A DNA stretch of 64,000 nucleotides from Bacteroidales bacterium UBA1715 (GTDB lineage Bacteria > Bacteroidota > Bacteroidia > Bacteroidales > UBA1715). How positions within the stretch are numbered: the first letter of the stretch is position 1; each line of letters opens with the position of its first letter. The DNA is taken from assembly GCA_002317135.1 (NCBI GenBank), contig DCIX01000041.1, positions 4,529-68,528 on the forward strand. Reading direction: 5' to 3'. Below the pieces are notes generated by a model that had not been told where the DNA came from, did no database searches, and worked only from the letters and a program-made list of their open reading frames with translations. This document shows positions 3,141 to 42,304 of the stretch, piece by piece. The position numbers were made by a program, and so were the translations under genes.

Positions 3141-4373
3141 ATGACAACATATTTAAACGCATTATGGCACATTACAAGCGAAATGGCGCCATATTTATTA
3201 CTTGGATTTCTTGTTGCTGGCGTACTTCATGTACTTGTACCACGCAATTTTTATTCTAAATATTTATCAAAAGATAATTTTGGTTCAGTTTTAACCGCCG
3301 CCCTACTTGGTATTCCCCTACCACTTTGTTCATGTGGGGTAATTCCAACCGCCATAGGTTTACGTAACGAAAAAGCTTCGAAAGGTGCCGTTGCTTCATT
3401 TCTGATTGCAACTCCACAAACAGGTATAGACTCAATTATTGCAACGTTCTCGCTTATGGGAATTGCATTTGCCGTTGTACGCCCTATTGCCGCTTTAGTA
3501 ACCGGTATCTGCGGAGGTATGCTCGTAACATGGCTTTGCGCAAAAGACAAATTTGATACAACAGAAGAAAATAACACTGCGACTCAAAAGAAACAAAAGA
3601 ATGCATTGTTAGCAATTCTACAATATTCTTTTGTGGATATGATACAAAGCATAGGCGGACGTTTGTTTTTAGGCTTATTATTGGCTGCACTAATACAAAT
3701 AGGTATTTCCGACGACTTCTTCCTAACCTACGGCAATGCTCCTCTTCTACAAATGCTTGTAATGTTGGTTATTGCCATTCCTATGTATATATGTTCAACC
3801 GGTAGTATTCCTATTGCTGCAGCATTGTTAGCCAAAGGATTAACACCTGGTGCCGCATTGGTTTTACTTATGGCTGGTCCTGCCGTAAACCTTGCTTCTA
3901 TTATGGTTGTGAAAAAAGCCATGGGTATGAAATTCACCTTGATTTACGTAGGTAGCGTTGTACTTGGAGCTATATTATTCGGTTTGACCTTAAATAACTT
4001 CAACGGTTTGCTATCGTTCACACAGACAACAGCAGAGCACTGTTGCGAGGTTCATGAAGAACAAACATCATGGTTTACAATTATTTGCACAATTTTTCTT
4101 TTATTACTAATATTAAACGTATTTATCATGGGTATTTTTAGTCGATTCAAAAAACAACAAGTTGAAGCTTCTGAAGTATTGTATTCAGTTGAAGGTATAG
4201 ATTGTAAACACTGTAAAGCCGCTGCCGAAGCCGCATTAGAAAAAGTTGCCGGCATAGAAGCAATAGAAATCAACCTTGAACAAAAAACTGTAAAAATAAA
4301 AGGAACAGCTTCTGAATCAGATATTTCTGCTGCTATCGAAAAGGCTGGATTTACATTTAAAGGTAAAAAATAA
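3141..4373 (+). CDS. multi-pass permease with C-terminal heavy-metal-associated domain (Cu/Zn efflux-type, DUF318/ArsP-like)
   Basis: Hydrophobic permease with PLCSCGVIP motif. C-terminal HMA domain YSVEGIDCKHCKAAAEAALEKVAGIEAIEINLEQKTVKIKG. Confidence 0.8.
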   Translation: MTTYLNALWHITSEMAPYLLLGFLVAGVLHVLVPRNFYSKYLSKDNFGSVLTAALLGIPLPLCSCGVIPTAIGLRNEKASKGAVASFLIATPQTGIDSIIATFSLMGIAFAVVRPIAALVTGICGGMLVTWLCAKDKFDTTEENNTATQKKQKNALLAILQYSFVDMIQSIGGRLFLGLLLAALIQIGISDDFFLTYGNAPLLQMLVMLVIAIPMYICSTGSIPIAAALLAKGLTPGAALVLLMAGPAVNLASIMVVKKAMGMKFTLIYVGSVVLGAILFGLTLNNFNGLLSFTQTTAEHCCEVHEEQTSWFTIICTIFLLLLILNVFIMGIFSRFKKQQVEASEVLYSVEGIDCKHCKAAAEAALEKVAGIEAIEINLEQKTVKIKGTASESDISAAIEKAGFTFKGKK

Positions 4374-4381
4374 TCAGCGTT

Positions 4382-5083
4382 ATGTTTACAATCCATGAAA
4401 CATGTACGCCGACAAAAGTCGACGAGAACAAGAAACTAAAACTATCCACCGCCATCAAAATGATGCACGACAGCGATGATTTATGGATAGATTCTGAGCC
4501 AGTTGCAAAGAATTGTTTTGAAACAGAACATCGCGCACAAGTTTTAGCCTATCGTCAGGTTGATATTATTCGTGTACCGGAACTGAGAGAGAAATTAACC
4601 ATATCTACAGCCATATACGAATGTAAGCCACTCTTCGGATTCAGAAACGACATAATACGTGACGAAGCCGGAAATCCCTGTTATGTAAGTTACGGAATGG
4701 GAGCATTTATCGACAAGGAAGCCGGTAAACTCAACCCTCTTCCACAGGCAATATTGGATTCGTTGACATACGATCCTAAATATGAGATGGAATATACTGA
4801 TCGTAAAATACGCTTGCCAAAAATTGCTCCGCAAGAATGCGCCAAAGTATTGGTAACCCGCGATGATATTGATTACAACCATCACATGAACAACAGCCAA
4901 TACATTCGTATAGCAATGGAACTACTCCCTGCCGATTTCACAGTAAAACGTATGCGCGTTGAGTACAAAATTGCGGCAAGACAAGGCGAAGAATTAACTC
5001 CATTCCTCTACATAGATAACAATGTTTACTATATAGAACTAAAATGCGAACGAGGTACATGTGCAATTATGTCATTTGAATAG
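4382..5083 (+). CDS. acyl-ACP thioesterase
   Basis: 233 aa with a double hot-dog pattern. DIDYNHHMNNSQYIRIAMELLP is characteristic of acyl-[ACP] thioesterases. Confidence 0.75.
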   Translation: MFTIHETCTPTKVDENKKLKLSTAIKMMHDSDDLWIDSEPVAKNCFETEHRAQVLAYRQVDIIRVPELREKLTISTAIYECKPLFGFRNDIIRDEAGNPCYVSYGMGAFIDKEAGKLNPLPQAILDSLTYDPKYEMEYTDRKIRLPKIAPQECAKVLVTRDDIDYNHHMNNSQYIRIAMELLPADFTVKRMRVEYKIAARQGEELTPFLYIDNNVYYIELKCERGTCAIMSFE

Positions 5084-5133
5084 TCTATTATTTCTAAAAG
5101 AAACTTTTATAGTCTTTTTTAGAAAAGAAATCT

Positions 5134-5141
5134 TACATTTG
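5134..5141 (+). promoter_or_regulatory. candidate -7 box TAcaTTTG for the tRNA gene
   Basis: tacatttg lies 12 nt upstream of the tRNA 5' end. Confidence 0.35.
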
Positions 5142-5152
5142 CACAGTATTAA

Positions 5153-5225
5153 GCGAGAGTAGCTCAGTTGGTAGAGCACAAGCTTCCCAAGCTTGGGGTC
5201 GCGGGTTCGAGCCCCGTTTCTCGCT
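5153..5225 (+). tRNA. tRNA-Gly (anticodon CCC)
   Basis: Hand-folded 73-nt cloverleaf. Acceptor gcgagag/ttctcgc, D arm gctc-agttggta-gagc, anticodon stem caagc/gcttg with loop ttCCCaa, T arm gcggg-ttcgagc-cccgt, discriminator U. Confidence 0.88.
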
Positions 5226-5259
5226 CTTATCCCCCAACACTTACAAAACCAAGAAACAA

Positions 5260-5418
5260 CTACGTCCTTATCGTGCGGCGATAGCTCAATGCATAACTTT
5301 TACACTGCGGACAAAACAGATAATTTTCGTTTAATCTACAAAAGTCCGTATCTTCTTTCTTTGCAAACAAGTTTCCACATTCCGGGCAGAAGACATCTTC
5401 TTTTCTTTCACCAAACAT
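5260..5418 (-). CDS. unannotated 52-aa zinc-ribbon ORF (CPxC...CPxC)
   Basis: Hand translation gives MFGERKEDVFCPECGNLFAKKEDTDFCRLNENYLFCPQCKSYALSYRRTIRT then TAG at 5262-5260. It falls below the 60-aa cutoff of the ORF track. Two CPxC knuckles lie 21 residues apart. Confidence 0.3.
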   Translation of the reverse strand: MFGERKEDVFCPECGNLFAKKEDTDFCRLNENYLFCPQCKSYALSYRRTIRT

Positions 5419-5430
5419 TGGTCACCACAT

Positions 5431-5458
5431 GTAGAGACGGTGTGCACACCGTCTCTAC
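5431..5458. repeat. REP copy 1: 28-bp perfect palindrome GTAGAGACGGTGTGCACACCGTCTCTAC
   Basis: Exact match, intergenic. Confidence 0.95.
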
Positions 5459-5545
5459 AAACAACGTTCACGTTCAATATACACTGCCATTATATTGACA
5501 ACACAGGGCATGTGACAATGACGCATGGGCGGAATTTTACCGCAT

Positions 5546-5573
5546 GTAGAGGCGGTGTGCACACCGTCTCTAC
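5546..5573. repeat. REP copy 2 (one arm mismatch: GTAGAGGCGG...)
   Basis: 27/28 match. The A-to-G change at position 7 gives a G:T pair in the hairpin. It lies 10 nt beyond the stop of the RAYT fragment. Confidence 0.9.
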
Positions 5574-5583
5574 CATTACGATG

Positions 5584-5871
5584 CTATTCAGTGTTTAATT
5601 CATCATTCTGCCAGGTTACAACATTTTTTTCAATATATTCCGATATGCGTTTGATTTCATCCTGATTGCGTATAATATGGTCGTGGAAACGGGTTTGCCA
5701 AACGAATGGAATGTTGTTTTGGTTGGCATAATTGGTAATGGCACGTTTCAGGCCACCTATAACAACAGATAAATGCCCCTTGTTTTTAGAAATAGTTTGC
5801 ATTTTATCATTCACCACATCCGATTTCCTACGTTCACCCGTAGAGACGGTGTGCACACCGTCTCTACTCAT
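5584..5871 (-). pseudogene. C-terminal half of a second, diverged RAYT (IS200/IS605-type Y1 transposase) gene, beginning exactly at a REP
   Basis: SRDGVHTVSTGERRKSDVVNDKMQTISKNKGHLSVVIGGLKRAITNYANQNNIPFVWQTRFHDHIIRNQDEIKRISEYIEKNV aligns with residues ~120-212 of the intact RAYT at 9173-9811. The N-terminal and HUH parts are missing. Confidence 0.75.
5840..5867. repeat. REP copy 3
   Basis: Exact 28-bp palindrome. It forms the 5' end of the RAYT fragment and lies 11 nt from the hsdR stop. Confidence 0.95.
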
Positions 5872-5878
5872 TTTTATT

Positions 5879-8800
5879 CTAACAATACCTCTTAAAATTC
5901 TCAGCCTGTTCTATCACTTTGTCATACACATCTTCAGGATGGTCCTCGGCTGGCGGATACTTATGTTTAGCCATAATCACGATTAAATCGAACTGCATTT
6001 CCGACATGATATCAGCACGCTTAAAGCAGTCGGTATAATGGGTTTTGTCGGCTATAATCGCTTTCATTTCCTTAGCAATCTCAATCATATTTTCATCTGG
6101 ATAATCAAAACCTCGTTCATCACGAACAGATTTTAGAATATCGAAAAATGCTTTTTCCTCATAATCTATACCAAGATCTTCATGAGACTTGCGTTCTTTG
6201 TCTAATTCCTCCATCATCTTCTTAATGTCGTCAACCACTTTTTTCATTACTTCAGTTACGTTGGCAACATCGTCGCTGCGGTCGTTATACGTGCGAATGA
6301 TTTCGTTTAAACGCTCGCCAAACACAATAGACTTGACTTTGTTCACTTTTCCGAATTCTGAAATCTGCTGTTTCACCAAGCGTTCCAACATGCGAAGTCT
6401 AATGTTTGGCAGATTTATCTTTTCTATACAATCGAGATGTTTCTTGTCGAAAATATCAAGGTCACCTTTTGTATCTTCCACTATCTTCACAACTTCTTCC
6501 ACACCGCTACTAACAAGAGCATCGGCTACTAATTTTCGAACACGTTCGTTCATCTCGGCTACATCGGGTGCATCGCCTTTGGTCATTTTGAATACAATGG
6601 AACGAACTGCGGTGAAGAACAACACTTTCTCTCTATGTATTTTATGCAAATTCTCGCTTGACGAACACATATTAAATGCCTGACGCATACGTTTCGCATG
6701 ACCCATAAACAAATTCTTACGTTCCTCTTCTTCCAATACAAAGTTTGCTCCTCCATTTAAGCATTGTAACTGTTTTAGAGCACTTTTTGCAAAGAAATCT
6801 TTATAATCGTACTTGTGCATAATGCCGTCGAGCACTTCGATTTCGTCTTTAACTATAGTAACAAGTTCGTCTATGCCTTCGGTTGGATCATCTCCACCAT
6901 CGCCTTTATCTGTACCATATTGTTTGAGGGCCTTGTTCATATTGCGTTTAATGCCGAGATAATCGACAACAAGACCTTTTTCTTTTCCCTCGCACACACG
7001 GTTTACACGACTGATGGTTTGAATAAGCGTATGTCGTTGCAATGGTTTGTCAACATACATAGTGTCGAGACTCGGAACATCGAAACCGGTGAGCCACATA
7101 TCAACAACTATCACTATTTTAAAGTTTGAATGTGGTTCTTTGAACTGACGTGCCCACTCTTGACGGTCGGCTTTATTGCCAAGCAATTTCGATAATTCCG
7201 GAACATCGTCTTTGTTGGTAGTCATCACCATTTTTACACGTTCCATTGGCAGAAGTTTGTCTTTTTCGTCTTCGGCAAGTTCAAACTCTGATGCACATGG
7301 TAGTTTCTTTGCCCATTCAGGACGAAGTGCTATGATATTTTTATATAAGTCGAAAGCTATTTCACGCGACGAACACACCACCATTGCTTTTCCGCACACG
7401 GTTGCTCCTTCGGCTATGCGTTGTTCGTAATGCGCAACAAGGTCTTCTGCAACTTTTTGCAAACGTTTTGGATCACCAATAATAGCATCCATCGTGGCAC
7501 TTTGCTGCTTGCTTTTGTTTATCTGTTCCTCGGTGCTTCCTGCATCCTCACATTCTTCATAATACTTGTCTATTGCTTCCAATTTTTCGTTGTCGGCAAA
7601 AACTTTGGCAGCACGACCTTCATAAACAATTCGCACAGTGATTCCATCGTTTACCGAATCGACCATAGTATATTTATCTACCACACCGCCAAACACGGCA
7701 ATGGTTTCGTCGATTGGTGTTCCTGTAAAACCGACATAGATTGCATTCGGCAACGAATTGTGCAGATATTGTGCAAAACCATACGTAGTTTTCATTGCGG
7801 TTGCCATACCATCTTTATCGAATGAAATCCGGGTTGATTCCTCCAAATTGGTTTGGGTACGATGTGCCTCGTCGCTTATGCAGATAATGTTTTTGCGATC
7901 GCTCAGCAGATTAATATCTTCCGAAAATTTCTGTATCGTGGTTAGAAACACGCCTCCACTTTTTCGACCGTTCAGTTTCTTGCGTAATTCTTCACGGCTG
8001 TCTATTTGTTCGATGGTTTCGTCGCCAATAAATTTTTTAGCACGGATAAACTGACTTGAAAGCTGGTCGTCGAGATCGGTTCTATCAGTTATAAGCAAAA
8101 TAGTCGGTGACTCCAGTTCGGTTGAACGCATCAACATTCTGCTCAAGAAAAGCATAGCCAAACTTTTACCACAACCTGTAGCGCCAAAATACGTTCCTCC
8201 TTTTCCATCGCCAATCTTATGATGTTCCAAAATGTTTTGGTACAACATAGTAGCAGCAAAATATTGCGGATAGCGGCATACTATCTTCTCTTCTTTGGTA
8301 CTTGAATCAGGGAAATAGATAAAGTTGCGCACAACTTCGAGCAAGCGTTCTTTGCGAAACAAACCGTGTACCATTGTAAAGAGGGAATCAAGTCCGTTAC
8401 TTGGCTTGTCCTCCGGTTCGATACGATTCCATGCATAGAAATATTCATATGGAGTAAACAACGAACCAAATTTATTTTGTGCTCCGTCGCTTATCACGAC
8501 AAATGCATTGTACCGGAACAAACTTGGAATATCTTTACGATACCGAACAGTGATTTGCGTAAAAGCATCTTTTATAGTACAATGTTCCTTTACAGCTGTT
8601 TTGAATTCCATCACCACCAACGGCAAACCGTTTACATACACAATAGCGTCAGGACGACGGTTACACACCTCAACAATCTCAACCTGATTCACAATTTTGA
8701 AATCGTTGTTTTGGGGATGGTCGAAATCTATCAATCGAATCCATAATGGTTCCTTCGTAGAGACGGTGTGCACACCGTCTCTACCATCATCCAAACCTGC

Positions 8801-9082
8801 GACCTCCCTACGCAACGGGAAACCCTCGACAATCATCTGCATTACACGGCGGTTTTCGTCGTATAGATTTTGCGACTGTTGTGCCTTGAGCATAAGGATT
8901 ACCTGCTGAATTTCTTCCTCGGTTATATCAGCATAGTGTGCACGCAAATAAGCCTCTATATCCTCAACAAGAAGAACCTCGGCCAAGTTTTTATGTAACT
9001 GTTCACCTAATTTATGTGTATAGTGCTCTTCGTCTCTGAAGAGCTCCATTATTGCATTTTCAAGTGTGGATTCGTTAAACAT
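5879..9082 (-). CDS. hsdR: type I restriction endonuclease subunit R (system 1)
   Basis: 1067 aa. N-terminal PD-(D/E)xK-like DAIVYVNGLPLVVMEFK, Walker A GATGCGKS, DEAH box ICISDEAHRTQ. Carries an in-frame REP-encoded RDGVHTVST at residues 101-109. Confidence 0.93.
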   Translation of the reverse strand: MFNESTLENAIMELFRDEEHYTHKLGEQLHKNLAEVLLVEDIEAYLRAHYADITEEEIQQVILMLKAQQSQNLYDENRRVMQMIVEGFPLRREVAGLDDGRDGVHTVSTKEPLWIRLIDFDHPQNNDFKIVNQVEIVEVCNRRPDAIVYVNGLPLVVMEFKTAVKEHCTIKDAFTQITVRYRKDIPSLFRYNAFVVISDGAQNKFGSLFTPYEYFYAWNRIEPEDKPSNGLDSLFTMVHGLFRKERLLEVVRNFIYFPDSSTKEEKIVCRYPQYFAATMLYQNILEHHKIGDGKGGTYFGATGCGKSLAMLFLSRMLMRSTELESPTILLITDRTDLDDQLSSQFIRAKKFIGDETIEQIDSREELRKKLNGRKSGGVFLTTIQKFSEDINLLSDRKNIICISDEAHRTQTNLEESTRISFDKDGMATAMKTTYGFAQYLHNSLPNAIYVGFTGTPIDETIAVFGGVVDKYTMVDSVNDGITVRIVYEGRAAKVFADNEKLEAIDKYYEECEDAGSTEEQINKSKQQSATMDAIIGDPKRLQKVAEDLVAHYEQRIAEGATVCGKAMVVCSSREIAFDLYKNIIALRPEWAKKLPCASEFELAEDEKDKLLPMERVKMVMTTNKDDVPELSKLLGNKADRQEWARQFKEPHSNFKIVIVVDMWLTGFDVPSLDTMYVDKPLQRHTLIQTISRVNRVCEGKEKGLVVDYLGIKRNMNKALKQYGTDKGDGGDDPTEGIDELVTIVKDEIEVLDGIMHKYDYKDFFAKSALKQLQCLNGGANFVLEEEERKNLFMGHAKRMRQAFNMCSSSENLHKIHREKVLFFTAVRSIVFKMTKGDAPDVAEMNERVRKLVADALVSSGVEEVVKIVEDTKGDLDIFDKKHLDCIEKINLPNIRLRMLERLVKQQISEFGKVNKVKSIVFGERLNEIIRTYNDRSDDVANVTEVMKKVVDDIKKMMEELDKERKSHEDLGIDYEEKAFFDILKSVRDERGFDYPDENMIEIAKEMKAIIADKTHYTDCFKRADIMSEMQFDLIVIMAKHKYPPAEDHPEDVYDKVIEQAENFKRYC
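8757..8784. repeat. REP copy 4, inside the hsdR coding sequence (in frame)
   Basis: Exact palindrome. The offset from the hsdR ATG is 298 nt, so it is read as G-RDGVHTVST. Confidence 0.95.
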
Positions 9083-9107
9083 TTACCTACATGTACATTT
9101 GATACAA

Positions 9108-9115
9108 CAAAGGTA
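9108..9115 (-). promoter_or_regulatory. candidate -7 box TAccTTTG for hsdR
   Basis: The minus strand reads tacctttg about 25 nt upstream of the hsdR ATG (9082), just downstream of REP copy 5. Confidence 0.35.
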
Positions 9116-9148
9116 AAAAAATAATTCAGATAATAGATTGCGTTAATC

Positions 9149-9176
9149 GTAGAGACGGTGTGCACACCGTCTCTAC
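9149..9176. repeat. REP copy 5, overlaps the RAYT stop codon
   Basis: Exact palindrome. The minus-strand GTAG supplies the TAG stop (9175-9173) of the RAYT ORF. Confidence 0.95.
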
Positions 9177-9811
9177 AGACGATATTCATCCAATTGCCAT
9201 TGTGCAACATTATTTTCGATATATGTGGCAATACGATTCAATTCATCCTGATTACGAACAATATGGTCGTGAAACCGTGGTTGCCAGGCGAATGGAATAT
9301 TGTTGGTATTGGCAAAATGGGTAATGGCACGTTTCAAACCACCGATAACAACAGACAATTGGCCCTTGTATTTAGAAATGTTTTGCATTTGTTCGTTCAC
9401 GACATCCGATTTCCATCGTTCATCCGTAGAGACGGTGTGCACACCGTCTCTACACGTACCGCCATCGTTTTCGTTTACCATATTGAATACCCCATCAATA
9501 ACAACAATTGCATGAATATGGTTGGGCATTACCACAAACAATGGTATTTCGGCGTACGGATAATGCGATTGTACGTTTACAAATTGTTTGTGGGCGTATT
9601 GACCAATTGGGGATAATTGCATCTGTGATTCAGGTATTACCATTCCCGTAGAGACGGTGTGCACACCGTCTCTACAATCGGTTGTTATTTCCCCGAAATA
9701 ATGTTCACGATTTTTGGTGCATATCGTTATAAAATATACGCCGCCGTTGTATCCGTGCCACGGCGCACGTGCCGATGATACACGGTATTTGTTTTGAAAT
9801 TTTTCTGCCAT
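9173..9811 (-). CDS. REP-associated tyrosine transposase (RAYT; IS200/IS605 Y1 HUH family)
   Basis: FQNKYRVSSARAPWHGYNGGVYFITICTKNREHYFGEI N-terminus, HUH motif MPNHIHAIVVI (H98/H100), C-terminal RFHDHIVRNQDELNRIATYIENN with candidate catalytic Tyr197. Two in-frame REP insertions encode CRDGVHTVST at residues 46-55 and 120-129. Confidence 0.85.
   Translation of the reverse strand: MAEKFQNKYRVSSARAPWHGYNGGVYFITICTKNREHYFGEITTDCRDGVHTVSTGMVIPESQMQLSPIGQYAHKQFVNVQSHYPYAEIPLFVVMPNHIHAIVVIDGVFNMVNENDGGTCRDGVHTVSTDERWKSDVVNEQMQNISKYKGQLSVVIGGLKRAITHFANTNNIPFAWQPRFHDHIVRNQDELNRIATYIENNVAQWQLDEYRL
9426..9453. repeat. REP copy 6, in frame inside RAYT
   Basis: Exact palindrome, read as C-RDGVHTVST (residues 120-129). 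Confidence 0.95.
9648..9675. repeat. REP copy 7, in frame inside RAYT
   Basis: Exact palindrome, read as C-RDGVHTVST (residues 46-55). Confidence 0.95.
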
Positions 9812-9951
9812 TGCGGTTGGCTGTTATTGGTTATAATTGAATATGTCATGCACATATAACGGATTTTTTGGATATTTATTTTCCAACGGCATTTTTTTGA
9901 CATGTAAAAACGCAGCGTACCATAGTTGGTTTCGTTCCTGTCATCGTTCCC

Positions 9952-9979
9952 GTAGAGACGGTGTGCACACCGTCTCTAC
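9952..9979. repeat. REP copy 8
   Basis: Exact palindrome, intergenic upstream of RAYT. Confidence 0.95.
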
Positions 9980-10145
9980 AATGCGGTGCAAATGGTTACG
10001 AAATATATTCCCCCATTATAATTATGCCAATTGGCACGGGCCGACGGTACGCGATATGTATTTTTGAATGTATCCATTGTTTCGTTTATTTTATTGTTAA
10101 CACATTGTGCGATTTGCCATGACCGTTATCGTTTTCCAGCCCCCC

Positions 10146-10173
10146 GTAGAGACGCGATTAATCGCGTCTCTAC
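10146..10173. repeat. REP variant with swapped palindromic core (GTAGAGACG-CGATTAATCG-CGTCTCTAC)
   Basis: The outer 9 bp of each arm are identical to the consensus. The central 10 bp GTGTGCACAC is replaced by CGATTAATCG, and the whole is still a perfect 28-bp palindrome. Confidence 0.9.
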
Positions 10174-10198
10174 AACATTTCCAATTTTTGTTCTGCAC

Positions 10199-10226
10199 GT
10201 AGAGACGGTGTGCACACCGTCTCTAC
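10199..10226. repeat. REP copy 10
   Basis: Exact palindrome, 25 bp from the variant copy. Confidence 0.95.
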
Positions 10227-10336
10227 AATGCGTCAAAACAATGCAACAACGCCACCGATTACACCAGCTACCAATCCAAATTTAATCCATTTTATTCACA
10301 CATTTTTGTTTCTGTATAAATTCGTTGAAAATAACA

Positions 10337-11848
10337 TTATATCTTTAGGTAATCCATAAATAAAGAATCTATACTCCATGAATCTGGGACCAATACTTTT
10401 TCATCTGGTTGAATTTGCATATTCTTACATATGGTTATATACTGCTTTGGTATATGAAACCATTGGTAAATTTTATTCTGTAGTTCTTTAAATGATATCC
10501 TTTCGCAATCATTATATGATGGTGTTACCTCCAATAATTTTTTACCTTCTTTCGATATACTACTCATTGCGATAATCTCTTCTTCTTCATTGAGCCAATT
10601 TTTAATTTTCGTTTTCTTAAAAACAAAATCCAGTGGTATAGCAACAGGATTAAACTTAGGTACAAAAAGTAAATAATTAGAAAACGGTTTCAAAACTTCA
10701 TTGATAAAGTCAAAAGACATTTTGTATTTTTCATTTTCAGACAAAGAGCATATTTGTTCTAAATAAAACGCCTTTAAACCCGACATTCCACGAAAAGTAG
10801 AATCATGATTAAAAAACATTTCAAACAAAATACCATTCAATAGATGATTTTCTTTATCAATTATCCAGTTATTCAAAAATCTCTCTAATTTACACTGTGA
10901 ATTGAATATTTCGCCAATCGTTCTTTCGCCTCCCACTGCCACTTGCAAAATGTTTCTTCCTAAAAGAAACTGTTCATTCCTATCTGGAAAATCTGTAGGT
11001 GTTTTATCAAGTATTACTTTGATAGCTGGTTCTTGAGTATACCAATTACAAGACTTCAAACTATATATGATTTCCGAGAAATCGCTCCCATTATTTGTAT
11101 ACAAAATGTCTTTGACAACATTCTCTTTATAAGGAATAGTTTTAGAAACATTTATATTACTACCATTATTAAAGCAATATTTTCCAATTAAAGATGTATG
11201 TTCCCATGACAGCTGTTTTTCATTAGTCAAACTATACACAGACTCTCTAACTCTTTTGAAACAATCTTCAATAGTGATATTCGGAACTCCAATATGCGTC
11301 AATAAAGCCTGTGTATATATACTATTTTCTCCAGGAATTCCATCCGTGGCAGTTTCTCCCGGAGATGTCGAAAAGGCAATTAAAGAACCTTTAGGAGCAT
11401 ATATTGGCGCCAATCCATTAGACACAACACTTCTATTACCTTTAAAAGGATTATCTCTACATGCATCTAGCACAAATATTTTTACCCTTACATTAACTTG
11501 ACAGATATCTTTTATTATTTCGTCAAATGATATAGCAGTGTATTTCGCAGAAGATTCATCTTCAACCGAAGCATCTATTGGCAATAAATAATTTTTACCA
11601 TCTACTTGTATTCCATGTCCAGAATAAAAGAATAAAGAAACAACATCTTCCTCTGTTGATGTAATTTTACTCTTATATTCAGATATTATCTTGCTGAATT
11701 CAGATTGCTTGAAATCTGTAGATAACAATACGTCAAATCCTAAATTCTCCAACTTTGATTTGATATCTTGCGCATCTTTAACCGCATTGTTAAGTTTTGT
11801 TGTACATTCATAATTGTTATTGCCAATAACAAGAGCATAAGACCTCAT
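10337..11848 (-). CDS. caspase-fold (peptidase C14) protease with uncharacterised ~270-aa C-terminal domain
   Basis: N-terminal ~230 aa start YALVIGNNNY and carry the catalytic His in FFYSGHGIQ (H78) and catalytic Cys in FVLDACRDNPF (C130). I recognise no motif in the C-terminal half. The gene starts 15 nt after the hsdS stop on the same strand and is markedly AT-rich. Confidence 0.85.
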   Translation of the reverse strand: MRSYALVIGNNNYECTTKLNNAVKDAQDIKSKLENLGFDVLLSTDFKQSEFSKIISEYKSKITSTEEDVVSLFFYSGHGIQVDGKNYLLPIDASVEDESSAKYTAISFDEIIKDICQVNVRVKIFVLDACRDNPFKGNRSVVSNGLAPIYAPKGSLIAFSTSPGETATDGIPGENSIYTQALLTHIGVPNITIEDCFKRVRESVYSLTNEKQLSWEHTSLIGKYCFNNGSNINVSKTIPYKENVVKDILYTNNGSDFSEIIYSLKSCNWYTQEPAIKVILDKTPTDFPDRNEQFLLGRNILQVAVGGERTIGEIFNSQCKLERFLNNWIIDKENHLLNGILFEMFFNHDSTFRGMSGLKAFYLEQICSLSENEKYKMSFDFINEVLKPFSNYLLFVPKFNPVAIPLDFVFKKTKIKNWLNEEEEIIAMSSISKEGKKLLEVTPSYNDCERISFKELQNKIYQWFHIPKQYITICKNMQIQPDEKVLVPDSWSIDSLFMDYLKI

Positions 11849-11863
11849 CTTTTCCTTTCTTTT

Positions 11864-13021
11864 TTACCCCGCCATCACCAACGATAGCAGTTCTGTTAAT
11901 TTATTAATTTCGTTATCTAATATTTTTATATCTTCATCGATGATTTTTGCTTTTGACTCAAAGTCAACGACTAATTTTTCATCTGGAATAACTACAGACA
12001 ATCCAAACAAATCATCTTTCGTTATGCTTCCAAAAACAGTTCCATCTTCATTTGAAACATTGAAATCGTGTTCTTTGGTTTGCAATAGATAATAAATGAA
12101 AGAGTTGCAACCGATTTTGCTACGCAATGCCGCTAAACCTCTACCAATGCAACAATCATGCGGTGCAATGTTCAAATCACCAACAGGAGCACGAACACTC
12201 AACAAGACATCTCCTAATTTAGCTATTCTTGTTGGTGCTGTTGTGTACATACGAATACTAGGGAATCTGTAACCATAATCAGTTCGCCCTTGATAGAAAA
12301 TCATTCCTTCGCTTTTTTCATTGTATGTTGAACCATCCGGAGATTGTCCCATCGTTATCTCTGCCACTTCTCCCAGTGTTCCCATTCTCCACCCTTCCGG
12401 CAGATTCTCCACATCCACATCATCCACAAACATTTTTCTATATAATGCTTGAGCGGCCTCTTCGAGTTTGGCTATGGTTTGTTTGTTGGTGGCAATGCGG
12501 TTTTGAATGGATTGGTAACGCAACACAATGCGGCGCTGTTCTTCGATGGAGGGAACGGGCAACTGTACATTACACATTTCTTCCCAATCAAAAACCTCAC
12601 GAGCACTGCCGTGCGAATGAAAACGTGCATAACGATCAAATTCTGCACGACGAAACCACATCATCAGATATTCTGGTAATAATTGTAGAGACGGTGTGCA
12701 CACCGTCTCTACGGAATCACACATATCTACAATTTCAAACACAACGTATGCCTGCGAAATAATGGCAGGTTCATCGCCTGTATATAATGCAACGGTTATC
12801 TTTTCACCATTACGTGATGTTACTGGTACATAAGCGAATTGGTTATGCTTTACAATCTTGTATGGGCGAAGATCTGTTCCAACCATATTGGCTATGGAAG
12901 GAATAAAAACTTTAGCATTGCTTAATCCCAAAAGATTGGTGCATCGCAAATCACTATTCCTCACGTCCACTTCACGGATATAATCCCCCAGACGTTTATA
13001 TGTAGAGTTGTTGTTTGTCAT
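11864..13021 (-). CDS. hsdS: type I R-M specificity subunit S, two TRDs (system 1)
   Basis: Two target-recognition halves separated by the conserved PSIEEQRRIVLRYQSIQNRIATNKQTIAKLEEAAQALYRKMF region. The preferred start MTNNNSTYKRLGDYI is at 13021; the alternative ORF-track start at 13057 overlaps hsdM. Contains the in-frame REP peptide VETVCTPSL. Confidence 0.88.
   Translation of the reverse strand: MTNNNSTYKRLGDYIREVDVRNSDLRCTNLLGLSNAKVFIPSIANMVGTDLRPYKIVKHNQFAYVPVTSRNGEKITVALYTGDEPAIISQAYVVFEIVDMCDSVETVCTPSLQLLPEYLMMWFRRAEFDRYARFHSHGSAREVFDWEEMCNVQLPVPSIEEQRRIVLRYQSIQNRIATNKQTIAKLEEAAQALYRKMFVDDVDVENLPEGWRMGTLGEVAEITMGQSPDGSTYNEKSEGMIFYQGRTDYGYRFPSIRMYTTAPTRIAKLGDVLLSVRAPVGDLNIAPHDCCIGRGLAALRSKIGCNSFIYYLLQTKEHDFNVSNEDGTVFGSITKDDLFGLSVVIPDEKLVVDFESKAKIIDEDIKILDNEINKLTELLSLVMAG
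12685..12712. repeat. REP copy 11, in frame inside hsdS (alternative reading frame)
   Basis: Exact palindrome. The offset of 345 nt from 13057 means it is read GTA GAG ACG..., giving VETVCTPSL. Confidence 0.95.
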
Positions 13022-13031
13022 CGCAAAGAAA

Positions 13032-14606
13032 TTACAATTTATACCCCAATTCCTCAAACACTTTCTTCACGGCCTTTTTGCTTTCTTCCTCTTGGGCAAA
13101 AAGTTCACGTAATTCTGTTTGAAGTCTGCTCATTGTTTCTTCGTAGCCGGCGTAATCGTCGCGGTTCACAAACTCAATGTATTTGCTTGGCACAAGCGAA
13201 CTATCTTTCAAATCGGTTGTCTTTACTGATTTGCAGAATTCTGGCACATCGGTGTATTCGCCCAAATCGGTGCGTTGCCATTGGTGGAACTTCTTGGCTG
13301 CGTTTGTAATATCGTCCGTGCTGAATGTGGTATATTTCTTTTCGAATGGTTCGCCCCATGTACGTAAATCCATAAACAGTATCTCGTTTGCACGCTCACG
13401 GTATTGGCGTTGCTCGCCGTTTACCGTTGTTGTACGGGCATGTTTGTTACGGTTTAGTATCCACAACGTTACCGAAATGTCGGTAGTATAGAACATATTT
13501 CGTGGAAGAATCACAATAGCCTCCACTGCATCGTGTTCTTCAATCAAAGCCTTACGAATTGCTTTTTCGTCACCATCGCCACTCAATGCGCCATTGGCAA
13601 GCAAAAAGCCGGCAATACCATCGGTAGAAAGCTTTGAGAAAATATTGAGTATCCACGCATAGTTGGCATTGCTTGTAGGTGGTACGGCAAAACCTTTCCA
13701 ACGAGGATCGTCGAGCAGTTCGCTTGATTCGCGCCAATCTTTTTGGTTAAAAGGAGGATTTGCCATAATGTAGTCGAACTTCTCTCCTTTATGCTGATCG
13801 TTTTGGAAAGTACTGGCAGCTTTTTCTCCCAAATTGGCCGAAATACCACGAATGGCAAGGTTCATCTTCGCCAGCTTATAGGTTGTGAGCGTGAACTCTT
13901 GTCCGTAAACCGAAATATCGCGTTTGTTTCCGTTGTGGTTTTCAATAAAACGGCTACTTTGCACAAACATACCACCAGAACCACAGGCAGGATCGTACAC
14001 TTTCCCTTTATACGGTTCTATCATTTCGGCAATGAGATTTACAATAGCCTTAGGCGTATAGTATTCTCCCTTACCCTTACCTTCCTGCAAAGCGAAGTTC
14101 GAAAGACAGTATTCATACACACGGCCAAAGAAATCATTATCTTCGTCCATGTGTTTTTCCATATCGTTCACTACATCGAGCAACGAGCCCAATTTAGCGG
14201 CATCTATACCCAGACTGCTATAATAGTTCGAAGGCAATGCGCCCGCAAGTTGTTTATTGTCTTTTTCTATATCGGCAAGCGCTTTGTCTATAATCTGCGC
14301 AATATTTGGCTGCTTAGCGTTTTGCATAATATAGTTCCAACGACAATGTTCCTGCAAATAGAATACATTATCCTTGCCGTAGGAAACAGGCATTTCGCAG
14401 AGCATATTGCCTCCACCAAATTGTTCTTCAAGTTTTTGGTATTGTTTTTCGAAACGAACACCTGCGTATTTCAAGAAAATCAAACTCAATACAACATGCT
14501 TGTATTCAGATGCTTCTATATTTCCACGTAGTTTATTAGCCGCATCCCATAGTTGTGCTTCAATGGATTTTTCAGTTTTTTTTGCTGTAGTGCTTTTTTT
14601 CGCCAT
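13032..14606 (-). CDS. hsdM: type I R-M DNA methyltransferase subunit M (system 1)
   Basis: N-terminal HsdM domain (LWDAANKLRGNIEASEYKHVVLSLIFLKY), SAM motif I DPACGSGGMF, catalytic motif IV ANPPFN. Confidence 0.95.
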   Translation of the reverse strand: MAKKSTTAKKTEKSIEAQLWDAANKLRGNIEASEYKHVVLSLIFLKYAGVRFEKQYQKLEEQFGGGNMLCEMPVSYGKDNVFYLQEHCRWNYIMQNAKQPNIAQIIDKALADIEKDNKQLAGALPSNYYSSLGIDAAKLGSLLDVVNDMEKHMDEDNDFFGRVYEYCLSNFALQEGKGKGEYYTPKAIVNLIAEMIEPYKGKVYDPACGSGGMFVQSSRFIENHNGNKRDISVYGQEFTLTTYKLAKMNLAIRGISANLGEKAASTFQNDQHKGEKFDYIMANPPFNQKDWRESSELLDDPRWKGFAVPPTSNANYAWILNIFSKLSTDGIAGFLLANGALSGDGDEKAIRKALIEEHDAVEAIVILPRNMFYTTDISVTLWILNRNKHARTTTVNGEQRQYRERANEILFMDLRTWGEPFEKKYTTFSTDDITNAAKKFHQWQRTDLGEYTDVPEFCKSVKTTDLKDSSLVPSKYIEFVNRDDYAGYEETMSRLQTELRELFAQEEESKKAVKKVFEELGYKL

Positions 14607-14734: not shown

Positions 14735-14777
14735 AAATAGATAATTCTTGCTAATTTTGCAATAATTAGCAAGAATT
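14735..14777. promoter_or_regulatory. 43-bp element, copy 1, with 14-bp-arm palindrome AATTCTTGCTAATT-N7-AATTAGCAAGAATT (between Fic and hsdM)
   Basis: aaatagataattcttgctaattttgcaataattagcaagaatt. Arms are at 14743-14756 and 14764-14777. It overlaps the Fic stop codon and lies ~130 bp upstream of the hsdM ATG. The near-identical copy is at 16103-16145. Confidence 0.6.
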
Positions 14778-16080
14778 ATTTTATTTTTATTTTATTTTCA
14801 AAATGTTCGCTTTTAAGGTATCCACGTTTTACCTTATTGATAGCCACCTCGTTAAGATATTTTTTCTCAACCAAATCCGTCAAATCTCTTCTTGCAGTCA
14901 TTTGTGTTATCATAAATCTGTCCATTACATCCTTAACGGTGATAACAGATTCAGGATTTTTTTGAAAATGATGAATAATCTGAGCCTGACGCTCGTTTAT
15001 ACCACCAATCATAATAAAGCTGTTTGCGGCCTCTTTTTCTTTTTGTTTCCTTTCAATATAGTTCTTGAGTTGCTCAAACGAGATTTTCAATGTTCTTAAG
15101 TTGTACGATACAAAATAGCTTACATCAAGTCCGTCGTTCTCAACATAGAGAAACGATTTTTCGTATGTTACTTTTGAACCAGAAATGATTCTGGAAATAG
15201 ACATATATTCCGTCAACCAATATTTCTCTTTAAGCATGTACCAATAAAACAAAGCCCTGGCAGTACGGCCGTTTCCGTCTATGAATGGGTGCATGTACGC
15301 TATCATAAAATGGACTATGATTCCACAAATGATAGGATGAATAAACACTTGCCCATTACCTTCGTTAAAAAACACACATAAATCATCCAAAAACTGTGGT
15401 AGTTCGCTGGCTGGAGGCGGCGTGTGAACCACTTCGTGGGTTATCTTGTTTTCTACAACCACGTCGTCATCTGCGGTTCTAAGTCTTCCTGCATCGTTGG
15501 CGTTCTCCAGCGTCTTTTCCGTCATTAGCCGATGAATGTAAAGAAGATTCTCTTTTGTGAGAGGTTCGTCTTTATGCTCCGTAATATATTGAATCGTCCG
15601 ATAGTTGTTCACTATCATTTGCTGTGATTTATCCTTTGGAGCAATGTTCTTTCTTAGCATTTCTTTTGCAACCATGCGTGTGGTTGAAGCACCTTCCATT
15701 TTGCTGGAATAGATAGCTTCCTCCATGAGCGAACTTGCCAGATAATGCATTTTCTCTTTCCCAGATTCTTCGTTTGATTCCCAAAAAGAACCGAACATCA
15801 TGTCGAACTCGTGACACAACTTCTGCATTTGGTTTGTTACGCACAGTGTCATGCCATATCTCTTCCACGCAGGTATGGCGTTTTTCATACGGTTTATTTT
15901 AACGTATGTCCACAAGTCCTCTGCCGAAACACCAGGCACTTGACCAGCCTTGTACTTTACCTTGTCCCAATAATCGTACGTTTCGTTTATCTTGTTTACA
16001 AGTGCATCAATGTTGACATCTGTTTTTTCAAACAGCGCCTTCCGCATTATTTTGTCGTTAAGTTTTGGAGCGTTTTCCAT
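14776..16080 (-). CDS. Fic-family protein (AMPylase-type) with C-terminal winged-helix domain
   Basis: Canonical Fic motif HPFIDGNGRTARAL. Upstream inhibitory-helix-like motif SSKMEG matches (S/T)xxxE(G/N). C-terminal wHTH-like segment ITVKDVMDRFMITQMTARRDLTDLVEKKYL. Confidence 0.9.
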   Translation of the reverse strand: MENAPKLNDKIMRKALFEKTDVNIDALVNKINETYDYWDKVKYKAGQVPGVSAEDLWTYVKINRMKNAIPAWKRYGMTLCVTNQMQKLCHEFDMMFGSFWESNEESGKEKMHYLASSLMEEAIYSSKMEGASTTRMVAKEMLRKNIAPKDKSQQMIVNNYRTIQYITEHKDEPLTKENLLYIHRLMTEKTLENANDAGRLRTADDDVVVENKITHEVVHTPPPASELPQFLDDLCVFFNEGNGQVFIHPIICGIIVHFMIAYMHPFIDGNGRTARALFYWYMLKEKYWLTEYMSISRIISGSKVTYEKSFLYVENDGLDVSYFVSYNLRTLKISFEQLKNYIERKQKEKEAANSFIMIGGINERQAQIIHHFQKNPESVITVKDVMDRFMITQMTARRDLTDLVEKKYLNEVAINKVKRGYLKSEHFENKIKIK

Positions 16081-39967: not shown

Positions 39968-39995
39968 GTAGAGACGGTGTGCACACCGTCTCTAC
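39968..39995. repeat. REP copy 12 (the only copy outside the 5-13 kb block)
   Basis: Exact 28-bp palindrome, 2 nt after the pbpC stop codon. Confidence 0.95.
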
Positions 39996-39997
39996 AA

Positions 39998-42304
39998 CTA
40001 AATCACATGTATCAAAATCGCTCTTCTATTTCCTTTTTCATCTACAATAGACAACACATGGTCTCCTTTGGGAGGAATGATTCCCAACTTATGAGAACCT
40101 TCTGTCTTACCAATATATTCAGTATCTAAATGCCAAAATAACACAGTATTTGGTTTGCGATTAACCGCTTCAAACACAACATGTTCCAACGAACCATCAA
40201 ATCCTCGTGGAACGAATATCGTTGCATTATGTTCCGGATAAATAAAATCTATTTGATCGGCATTTCCATAGTCACAATCCTCACGGAATGGCGGCAACAC
40301 ATGATAATCGGCATGTTTGGTTTTATAATAATACTCCTGTGCCGCAGGAAGAACAAACCATTGCTTTGTTTGAAATTCGTCGACAGTGACACATTGGGAA
40401 TTTACTTGCCACAAACCATCTGTACTTATATGAACTATACGACAATACGGACACTGTGTTGTTTGTGCAGATACAGAAGGTAAAAAAACAGTATCCGTAA
40501 AAGCACAATTTTCTGTTGCTAAACAGCCACTTTGACGACATACGACCATTGTTTCCATATCGGTTGTCGGTTTAACAAACCATTCCGAGTTTTCCAATAA
40601 GGCAAATACATCAAACATAACTGGTGACGCATAGCCAACGCCTGTCATTCCGGCACGACCCTCGCCTGTTGCATTTCCCGTCCATACCCCAACAACATAT
40701 TTCGGCGTTACGCCAACCGACCACGCATCACGACTACCCCAACTCGTTCCCGTTTTCCATGCTATATTTTTCATAGAACGAAATTGCGACCATTCAGCTT
40801 CTTCCTCTGGCCTATTTAATTTCGACATAGCATCAATTGCATACCAAATTGCCGGCTTTGTTAAACGACACTCTTCTGTATCTTTTTCTTTTGACTGTAG
40901 CTGAACCGACAATTTACGATACATCTGGCATAAATCCCACAGTTTTACTTCCACACCACCCAAAATCAACGAAGCACCATAATGGTCTTCATTATAATGC
41001 AATGTGTTCATTCCCAACCACTTTAAATCCTCCATAAACCGTCCGGGACCATGCTGCATAAGCATACGAACCAAAGGTACATTCAATGATTGCACAATAG
41101 CATCGTCGGCGTGTACTGCACCACTAAATGTATGGCTGAAGTTCGACGGCGTAAAACCATTGATAGACAACGGCGTATCGGAAATCAACTGACGTGGAGT
41201 AATCTCGCCACTACTTATCATTGCGGCGTACAAAAACGGTTTGAGCGTACTTCCAGGACTACGTTCACTTTGCACAATATCGACTTGCCAAGCTTCAACG
41301 GACATATCGGTTGTATTACCGACATAGGCAATTGGATTTCCCGTTTCTACATCAAGAACAAGAATGGCAATATTATCTATATGGTTTGAATTATGATACG
41401 AGCGAGCATAGTCGTTCGCCAACCGTTGTACCATAGTTTGCAAGCGAGAATCTATATCGGTTTTTATCTGTTTACCATTATTCTTCTTAGACAAAAAATC
41501 TAAATAATGCATTGCATTATTCGGTATGGCATACGGTTTATCGGGAAGCGGTTCCTCTAAAGCCAAAGTGAGTTCTTCTTCGGTAATAAATCCATTCTCG
41601 TGCAAAGTACGCAACAATCCATCGCGTTTCTTTTGTAATTCCGAACGATTTCGAGATAGATGTATCAATGATGGCGAATTTGGCAAAACCGCAAGGCAAC
41701 ACATTTCCGCCCACGAAAGACGTGAAATCTCACGATTACAATAACGCCATGTGGCAGCATCGAGCCCGACAATATTGCCACCAAACGGAGCATGCGATAA
41801 ATATAAACGAAGAATTTCCTCCTTGGAATGCGTCAATTCTATATCTATTGCCCAGAAAATTTCTACAATCTTATTCCAAACTGTTCGTGGTTGATTTCCT
41901 CTAGCCATACGAGCCACTTGCATAGTCAGCGTACTGCCACCCTCACGACGACCATTTCCGCTCATATTATGCTTACAAGCACGCAGAATAGCAATTGGAT
42001 CTACACCCAAATGTCTATAAAAACGTTTGTCTTCATACTGAATAAGACAAGTTATAAACTTTTCGTTCAAAGAATCTGTTTCCGGAAAACGCCACTGTCC
42101 GTCAGCCGCAATGCGTGCACCAAGCAGTGCACCATTTTTATCCAACAACACCGTCGAGGTTGAATCGCGGAACAATTGCCGTGGCATTACAAGCCAATGA
42201 AACAAGGTAAAAAACAATATGCAACCACATATCAGGATAAGAAAAAAGGACATTAGCGCATGTCCTTTCATTTTTACAAATATCTGATTAGCAAACTGTT
42301 TCAT
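39998..42304 (-). CDS. pbpC: penicillin-binding protein 1C (glycosyltransferase + transpeptidase)
   Basis: GT51 motifs (EDKRFYRHLGVDP, GGSTLTMQ), transpeptidase region SPGSTLKP, and a C-terminal PbpC-type domain. Confidence 0.9.
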   Translation of the reverse strand: MKQFANQIFVKMKGHALMSFFLILICGCILFFTLFHWLVMPRQLFRDSTSTVLLDKNGALLGARIAADGQWRFPETDSLNEKFITCLIQYEDKRFYRHLGVDPIAILRACKHNMSGNGRREGGSTLTMQVARMARGNQPRTVWNKIVEIFWAIDIELTHSKEEILRLYLSHAPFGGNIVGLDAATWRYCNREISRLSWAEMCCLAVLPNSPSLIHLSRNRSELQKKRDGLLRTLHENGFITEEELTLALEEPLPDKPYAIPNNAMHYLDFLSKKNNGKQIKTDIDSRLQTMVQRLANDYARSYHNSNHIDNIAILVLDVETGNPIAYVGNTTDMSVEAWQVDIVQSERSPGSTLKPFLYAAMISSGEITPRQLISDTPLSINGFTPSNFSHTFSGAVHADDAIVQSLNVPLVRMLMQHGPGRFMEDLKWLGMNTLHYNEDHYGASLILGGVEVKLWDLCQMYRKLSVQLQSKEKDTEECRLTKPAIWYAIDAMSKLNRPEEEAEWSQFRSMKNIAWKTGTSWGSRDAWSVGVTPKYVVGVWTGNATGEGRAGMTGVGYASPVMFDVFALLENSEWFVKPTTDMETMVVCRQSGCLATENCAFTDTVFLPSVSAQTTQCPYCRIVHISTDGLWQVNSQCVTVDEFQTKQWFVLPAAQEYYYKTKHADYHVLPPFREDCDYGNADQIDFIYPEHNATIFVPRGFDGSLEHVVFEAVNRKPNTVLFWHLDTEYIGKTEGSHKLGIIPPKGDHVLSIVDEKGNRRAILIHVI

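Follow-up and report, generated by a model that had tools for sequence, protein, structure and literature searches.

REP palindromes in frame within a RAYT (TnpAREP) gene of a Bacteroidales bacterium: type, placement and possible origin

The RAYT gene and its internal REPs

The window analysed here, a 64,000-nucleotide stretch of the Bacteroidales bacterium UBA1715 assembly (GCA_002317135.1, contig DCIX01000041.1, positions 4,529 to 68,528), carries an intact gene for a REP-associated tyrosine transposase (RAYT, or TnpAREP), and the repetitive extragenic palindromic (REP) sequence found around this gene also stands inside it twice, in frame, and a third time at its stop codon. The internal copies are of the locus's own REP type and fall in predicted surface loops around the catalytic core. 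The feature is real and non-random, and it is an instance of a property already described for TnpAREP subclass 2.4. The gene and the three REPs that touch it are:

9173..9811, minus strand: intact RAYT (TnpAREP) gene, subclass 2.4 type, open reading frame (ORF) of 212 aa
9648..9675: internal REP at site 1, exact and in frame, encoding (C)RDGVHTVST, RAYT residues 46–55
9426..9453: internal REP at site 2, exact and in frame, encoding CRDGVHTVST, RAYT residues 120–129
9149..9176: 3′ flanking REP, exact; the CTA at 9173–9175 is the minus-strand TAG stop of the RAYT gene, within that strand's GTAG

The REP is a 28-bp perfect palindrome, GTAGAGACGGTGTGCACACCGTCTCTAC, with GTAG at its 5′ end and CTAC at its 3′ end. 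Eleven copies occur in the window at no more than one mismatch, where 100 shuffles gave an expectation of none; with the variant at 10146–10173 the total comes to 12, each headed by GTAG. As single-stranded DNA the palindrome is predicted to form a hairpin (−12.1 kcal/mol, z = −6), with 12 bp in the stem and 4 nt in the loop. An Rfam scan of 5000–13200 returned a tRNA alone, the REP hairpins matching no curated RNA family.

The ORF translation contains the motifs of a RAYT: N97-H-I-H100 (the HUH motif), W176-Q177 and Y197-IENNV. The HUH signature, HIH at residues 98–100, lies on a predicted strand (98–105), and both H98 and H100 are unchanged in 119 homologs; Y197, kept in at least 90% of homologs, sits on a predicted helix (188–199), and its region aligns with the YIYINP region of the E. 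coli TnpAREP structure 4ER8. All 13 family-invariant residues are preserved. An earlier note, made from the DNA letters, had described the 212-aa ORF, the repeated decapeptide with its exact palindromes, the HIH and the tyrosine, and had traced the TAG stop to a third REP; all of this was borne out.

Profile searches place the protein in the same family, at scores that depend on the loops. The full-length RAYT matches NCBIfam NF047646 (REP_Tyr_transpos) at 3e-13, with 49.8 bits against a cut-off of 80, and Pfam PF01797 (Y1_Tnp) weakly, at 18 bits against a cut-off of 23. With both loops removed, the Pfam match rises to 29.4 bits, above 23, and the NCBIfam match to 68.8 bits, still under 80, each in one continuous match; the REP-coded loops thus depress the scores of the full-length protein. 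In the opposite direction, a profile of the RAYT family built from the 119 homologs matches 4ER8 at 4.5e-7. Motifs, profiles and fold match (see below) agree that the window gene is a RAYT, and from its sequence it is a functional-looking member of subclass 2.4.

The earlier note had asked whether the insertions fall in loops, and in an AlphaFold2 model (mean pLDDT, the predicted local distance difference test, of 75.5; predicted template-modelling score of 0.70; pLDDT above 90 in the core) they do: pLDDT drops below 50 exactly at residues 48–58 and 110–131, that is, at both REP-coded segments. The site-1 peptide forms a hairpin loop between strands 40–44 and 62–66, before helix αA; the site-2 peptide lies in the loop between the HUH strand β3 (98–105) and the long helix αC (140–169), residues 107–131 holding the REP at 9426–9453. 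A Foldseek search of the PDB with this model returned 4ER8 first (E = 3e-6) and then solely the IS608, ISDra2 and IS200 transposases, the top 30 hits all being Y1 enzymes, in keeping with the RRM-like fold of that superfamily, a four-stranded sheet packed by helices. Both REP insertions thus fall, in the predicted structure, in surface loops around a confident HUH/Tyr core.

The internal REPs also feature in the predicted RNA. In the minimum-free-energy fold of the minus-strand RNA of 9140–9830, the REP of site 1 and that of the stop codon form a long-range duplex of about 28 bp (z = −8 relative to shuffled sequence) that would enclose most of the RAYT ORF. Pairing of this kind is open to any two identical palindromes within an RNA, and such a REP–REP duplex would be a plausible RNase III substrate.

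REPs across the RAYT family and in published systems

The window RAYT has 5,878 homologs at E ≤ 1e-3. Among the 120 listed, lengths run from 139 to 323 aa, those with a source name come nearly all from metagenome-assembled genomes (MAGs) of Bacteroidales or Paludibacteraceae, and most lack a Pfam domain and bear the name "hypothetical protein". Since in-frame REPs push the window protein below the Pfam threshold, the RAYT clade is hidden from routine annotation. For comparison we used 81 loci, 80 from GTDB species representatives plus the window, with a recognisable RAYT ORF in 75, together with two alignments: A1, of 30 sequences, and A2, of 119 homolog rows, 115 of them with the HUH motif.

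Length variation in the alignments is concentrated at sites 1 and 2 and consists of REP-type peptides and partial tandem repeats of them. At least one GTAGAGAC-headed palindrome lies inside the RAYT ORF in 57/75 loci, and a REP-type peptide stands between the HUH and WQ motifs in 103/115 A2 sequences. Between residue 30 and the HUH motif such a peptide is found in 52/115 A2 sequences, a count that may include REPs upstream of the true start codon; on visual inspection, about 17 of the 29 closest homologs (A1) and about 5 of the 75 loci have a clear insertion at site 1. From these counts site 1 appears restricted to the clade nearest the window and site 2 family-wide, so the earlier note's question of lineage-specific insertions is answered yes for site 1 and no for site 2. 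The site-2 loop often holds tandem half- or partial-REP arrays, with low-complexity repeats of up to about 70 aa (P0014, P0034 and P0084; L003, L032 and L071) such as HVKCGDVA ×5, WRVST ×5 and ARNVSTS ×4.

What is conserved at these sites is the DNA palindrome and not the peptide, for two open frames are in use: internal REPs read CRD....VST in 44 cases and VET....SLQ in 24, the third frame containing TAG. In four loci (the window, L005, L041 and L062) the 3′ REP supplies the RAYT stop codon. Counted over 76 loci, RAYT ORFs hold REPs at 1.43/kb and other ORFs of 200 aa or longer at 0.019/kb, an enrichment of about 75-fold in the former; the figure for sequence outside both is 0.65/kb. The self-colonisation proposed in the earlier note is real, yet not exclusive, as the window's hsdR and hsdS carry REPs too.

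The internal REPs are, moreover, those of their own locus. The outer arms, GTAGAGACG and CGTCTCTAC, are near-constant across loci, while the inner 10–12 nt vary by compensatory changes. Internal and flanking inner stems differ by no more than 1 nt in 33/43 loci (77%), compared with 7% of mismatched locus pairs: the internal REP is the locus's own REP type.

This type follows part of the enzyme. Among 55 loci, pairs with the same REP type are more alike in residues 132–175 (0.52 vs 0.38) and no more alike in the N-terminal 45 or C-terminal 34 residues; with the other segments controlled for, the excess at 132–175 was reached by 0/500 label permutations. Residue by residue, association with REP type peaks at about 74–89 and 143–165 and dips at the HUH strand. 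E. coli TnpAREP binds its hairpin through αB and αC, the latter in the minor groove (Messing et al. 2012, PMC3479197), and by position the two peaks correspond to these helices, which are predicted by analogy to bind the hairpin. The covariation fits published RAYT–REP coevolution and, at the level of sequence, confirms the internal REP as the cognate substrate. Simple linkage was considered as its source and set aside, given the lack of a smooth fall-off with distance, the second peak at 74–89 and the HUH-strand trough; pure physical linkage is thus an unlikely cause, and recombination clearly occurs as well.

Internal REPs have a published precedent. As Quentin, Siguier, Chandler and Fichant (2018, BMC Genomics 19:475, PMC6006769) defined it, subclass 2.4 comprises proteins of about 194 aa with NH[IFV]H, WQ and YIxNNP motifs, from Cyanobacteria, Bacteroidetes and other phyla, with "double foot" REPs (5′ GT[AG]G, 3′ C[TC]AC) and with REPs in frame inside tnpAREP, of variable length, between β3 (HuH) and αC. 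The insertion was modelled there as a peripheral extension with probably little effect on activity, and the intragenic insertions were called "a remarkable and unique feature". Going by that description, the window RAYT shares the NHIH, WQ and YIxNN motifs, the double-foot REPs, the REP insertion between β3 and αC, the length class (about 194 aa) and a Bacteroidetes host. It differs in its tyrosine motif, YIENNV, which ends in V where the signature, like other members of the family, has NNP, and in a second in-frame REP before αA and a REP-supplied stop. The earlier note had put typical lengths at 140–170 aa; against the subclass average the 212-aa protein is only modestly long. Among the described features compared, the window RAYT fits subclass 2.4 in each except V for P. 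The other Bacteroidetes subclass, 2.6, is described in the same source as having atypical flanking structures, a 21-aa insertion between αC and β4 and a YIH[QN]NP motif, whereas the window gene is flanked by canonical GTAG palindromes and has its insertions before αA and before αC.

In-gene REP insertion is thus already published as typical of subclass 2.4, the sole group in that account with the substrate inside the enzyme's own gene, and the locus adds nothing fundamentally new to this fact. The additions here are the second loop site, the REP-supplied stop, the statistics of frame use and of internal–flanking match, the αB/αC covariation, and a trio of the window and two close relatives (L081 and L083, below) with a core swap, mosaic gene blocks and a replacement of REP type inside hsdR. 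The internal–flanking match statistics, the two-frame use, the αB/αC covariation and the in-place type replacement were not found in the main-text sections and legends of Quentin et al. that were consulted.

Four other systems bear comparison. E. coli TnpAREP (4ER8, in complex with a REP hairpin, PMC3479197), the best sequence and fold match to the window RAYT, is an HUH/Tyr single-stranded-DNA nuclease that reads a GTAG foot and hairpin through αB and αC; it is only 19% identical to the window RAYT and has an inhibitory C-terminal extension, and the REPs of E. coli, imperfect hairpins that carry a bulge and just one GTAG foot, are strictly extragenic and not found inside tnpAREP. Di Nocera et al. 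(2013, PMC3733652, and references therein) describe GTAG/CGTC REPs, as well as Rickettsia palindromic elements, inserted within genes in frame; the host genes are probably still functional and include some of DNA metabolism, the REPs in hsdR and hsdS of the window being of like kind; those cases are scattered over unrelated genes, in contrast to the roughly 75-fold enrichment of the window family in its own transposase gene. The REP "orthoswitch" of Nunvar et al. (2013, PMC3686654), in which orthologous RAYT genes are paired with differing classes of REP and older variants are partly displaced by newer ones, resembles the window and L081 set against L083; it concerns extragenic REPs of Pseudomonas and Stenotrophomonas, whereas here REPs inside coding sequence are switched as well and the central block of the RAYT is replaced too. 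The IS200/IS605 TnpA transposases (IS608, ISDra2), finally, share the fold, the catalytic motifs and hairpin substrates on single-stranded DNA, and differ as dimers of about 130–150 aa within a defined insertion sequence with subterminal left and right hairpins; they lack a REP population of high copy number, and their coding sequences contain no hairpins.

Close relatives and the origin of the internal REPs

Comparison with close relatives involves two neighbouring genes of the window and the REPs within them, REPs that the earlier note did not report:

5879–9082, minus strand: hsdR
8757..8784: REP in frame inside hsdR, encoding RDGVHTVST, aa 101–109
11864–13057, minus strand: hsdS
12685..12712: REP in frame inside hsdS, encoding VETVCTPSL, aa 116–124, in the other open frame and in the first target-recognition domain

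The nearest relative, L081 (GCA_024402315.1), is syntenic over hsdM, hsdS, variable genes, RAYT, hsdR and a thioesterase gene, and its HsdR is 99.5% identical to that of the window, with a REP at the same site. Its RAYT is identical to the window's over nt 123–489, both internal REPs included, with 16 differing sites before this block and 17 after it. Against L081 and a further relative, L082, dS of the window RAYT spans 0 to 1.0 between segments, while dN/dS (the ratio of nonsynonymous to synonymous rates) is 0.16–0.17 overall and 0.06–0.18 in every variable segment. These values indicate a protein under purifying selection encoded by a mosaic gene, and with a dN/dS of about 0.16 the RAYT gene is unlikely to have been dead for long.

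In L083 (GCA_045615765.1) the RAYT lies upstream of the orthologous hsdR. Its first ~120 nt are those of L081 and its last ~170 nt those of the window, GGTGTGCACACC stop REP included; the block between, which starts just ahead of REP1 and ends some 150 nt beyond REP2, is foreign and carries GTTGCGCGCAAC (VARN-type) REPs. At the orthologous codon position of L083 hsdR (4037–4064) there is likewise an in-frame GTTGCGCGCAAC REP, where the window and L081 have GGTGTGCACACC; this REP brings 6 additional nt, and its immediate flanks are changed, while the rest of the gene is about 95% identical. The two REP types differ by two compensatory pair changes, and because the same difference is repeated at several sites, it points to copying and not to independent mutation. 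We read the L083 REPs as having been replaced in place after a change in RAYT specificity, which would explain why site 2 is both occupied and cognate. The hsdS REP was also considered as evidence of insertion, as L081 has a gap at that position, and was set aside as weak, the target-recognition domains being only 43% identical.

The locus bears on REP spread and on the long-term matching of RAYT and REP. The findings to be explained are a site 2 occupied throughout the family, internal REPs that match the flanking ones, the use of two frames and a type replacement at an orthologous site, in a gene identified as a RAYT, with its REPs in loops and its protein under purifying selection. Our preferred explanation, to which we give a probability of about 70%, is that cognate REPs inserted by local RAYT action persist where they fall in frame in tolerant loops, and that occupied sites are re-used and overwritten. 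The enzyme would act preferentially nearby, and REPs would accumulate in and around its gene. A REP is open in two of three frames, and a copy landing in frame in a tolerant surface loop (the β-hairpin before αA, or the β3–αC loop after the HUH strand) would spare the protein and so persist. An occupied site would then be re-used, the resident hairpin giving way to the REP type mobilised by the enzyme then present, so that the internal copy would stay cognate while the loop gathers partial and tandem REP debris. RAYT itself would catalyse both insertion and replacement, and the REP-coded peptides would presumably be functionally neutral.

Several observations weigh against this reading. The in-place replacement rests on one clear orthologous case. 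Palindromes are perfect in 24/70 internal and 32/124 external REPs, and near-universal occupancy of site 2 together with intact palindromes could equally well fit selection for a cis-acting role. The full-length RAYT falls under the curated cut-offs of Pfam and NCBIfam alike, and even the loop-trimmed protein, at 68.8 bits in one continuous match, stays under the NCBIfam equivalog cut-off of 80. The nearest-relative orthologue (L081 5001–5528) has W176 changed from TGG to TAG and is truncated before the WQ and Tyr motifs, through either recent pseudogenisation or an assembly error; with the two RAYT paralog fragments in the window, this stop implies that RAYT decay does occur in the lineage. 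Later functional work (activity, expression) on subclass 2.4 members was not found in the literature.

One alternative, which we consider unlikely, is that the internal REPs are maintained by selection, either as elements of cis-acting feedback control or as recombination hot spots. In the feedback form RAYT would bind or nick the hairpins of its own gene when these are single-stranded, or mRNA hairpins and REP–REP duplexes would limit translation or stability; in the recombination form the hairpin-recognition core and its cognate REPs would be exchanged together. Site 2 is filled in 76% of loci and 90% of homologs, from Bacteroidales and Marinilabiliales to a Flavobacteriales MAG, which such selection would account for; there are, however, intact-looking members with no site-2 REP (e.g. 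L061, L077 and L046). The palindrome is kept while the reading frame changes, and internal copies are no more degraded than external ones, whereas loop copy number and spacing vary as widely as expected of debris and not of a tuned element. That REP type follows the predicted hairpin-binding helices also fits, though αB/αC covariation is expected from ordinary, published RAYT–REP coevolution. For feedback in particular there is the predicted mRNA pairing of the site-1 and stop REPs (about 28 bp, z = −8), yet autoregulation is required by no result here, and hsdR and hsdS carry in-frame REPs for which no such role is plausible. For exchange there is the L083 block, which was exchanged whole, has REP1 as its left breakpoint and holds, cassette-like, both internal REPs and the covarying helices, as well as the identity blocks among the window, L081 and L082 that span the internal REPs; the right-hand breakpoints of the mosaic blocks do not lie at REPs.

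A bolder form of this idea, which we offer tentatively and hold to be improbable, is that the RAYT core is a swappable specificity cassette with its own hairpins, made up of REP1, the αB region, the HUH strand, REP2 and the first half of αC. RAYT-stimulated recombination or gene conversion there would change the REP specificity of a genome in a single event; resident REPs, those in other genes included, would then be overwritten by the new enzyme, and the hairpins might throttle RAYT expression. The window and its relatives form a compact natural experiment in this respect, with neighbouring genes near-identical and the RAYT core and every nearby REP, one of them in hsdR, switched together; this joint switch makes both in-place REP replacement and cassette-like exchange of specificity testable. 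The RAYT fragments of the window were considered as conversion donors for the patches that differ between window and L081, and rejected: their DNA is about 76–78% identical to the resident gene and does not match the variant sites.

That the gene is instead a decaying pseudogene that retains an ORF, its REP insertions being damage after inactivation, was raised in the earlier note, and we consider it very unlikely. The W176 stop of the L081 orthologue, the truncated paralogs at 5584–5871 and 9976–10077 and the sub-cut-off scores of the full-length protein would all suit decay, the last of these losing force because the loops themselves depress profile scores. Against it stand the 13 invariant residues and intact HUH, WQ and Tyr motifs, the dN/dS of 0.16–0.17 overall and 0.06–0.18 per segment against L081 and L082, the confident AlphaFold2 core, and hundreds of intact homologs with the same insertions. 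The last alternative, a conserved protein motif whose palindrome is a mere by-product of coding, has RD....VST-like peptides recurring at the same place in most homologs on its side and is nonetheless refuted by the use of the VET....SLQ frame in a third of cases, by four variable residues that change in step with each genome's flanking non-coding REPs and so match the extragenic copies, and by the identical 28-mer in intergenic DNA and unrelated genes.

Other REPs, paralog fragments and neighbouring genes

The remaining REPs of the window and two RAYT paralog fragments, the N-terminal one absent from the earlier note, are the following:

9952..9979: REP upstream of the RAYT gene, which also ends the N-terminal RAYT fragment
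9976..10077, minus strand: N-terminal RAYT paralog fragment, 33 codons, 70% identical to residues 3–32
10146..10173: REP variant GTAGAGACGCGATTAATCGCGTCTCTAC, outer 9 nt unchanged, inner stem different
10199..10226: intergenic REP, exact
5840..5867: REP at the 5′ end of the C-terminal RAYT fragment, equivalent to site 2; the block specific to the window has its left junction 3 nt away
5584..5871, minus strand: C-terminal RAYT paralog fragment, 95 codons, 76% amino-acid identity to residues 120–209
5546..5573: REP, 1 mismatch, shortly past the downstream end of the C-terminal RAYT fragment
5431..5458: REP, exact, upstream of a small CxxC ORF
39968..39995: distant extragenic REP, 2 nt beyond the stop codon of a gene for a penicillin-binding protein (39998–42304, minus strand)

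The C-terminal fragment starts exactly at the REP at 5840–5867, in agreement with the earlier note, which had placed a REP in this fragment at the position of the second insertion; the N-terminal fragment is cut off by the TAG of the REP at 9952–9979. A REP of the GTAGAGACGCGATTAATCGCGTCTCTAC type is the resident REP of other genomes.

Downstream of hsdR a block of about 640 bp (~5240–5878) is present in the window and not in L081, which has a short terminator-like hairpin (L081 8934–9000). The block contains the C-terminal RAYT fragment, three REPs and a 52-aa CxxC...CxxC ORF (5260–5418, minus strand), and is bordered by a tRNA-Gly(CCC) gene at 5153–5226. As a clean REP-to-REP mobile unit it was not demonstrated: its other junction lies away from any REP and shows substituted sequence, not a simple insertion.

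Between hsdS and RAYT, within the type I restriction-modification operon, the window encodes a caspase-like Peptidase_C14 protein of 503 aa (10337–11848, minus strand). The corresponding slot in L081 (2278–4585) holds a SLFN_AlbA_2 protein and two unknown genes, and this difference in contents marks a variable cargo position between hsdS and RAYT. A Fic/DOC gene lies at 14776–16080.

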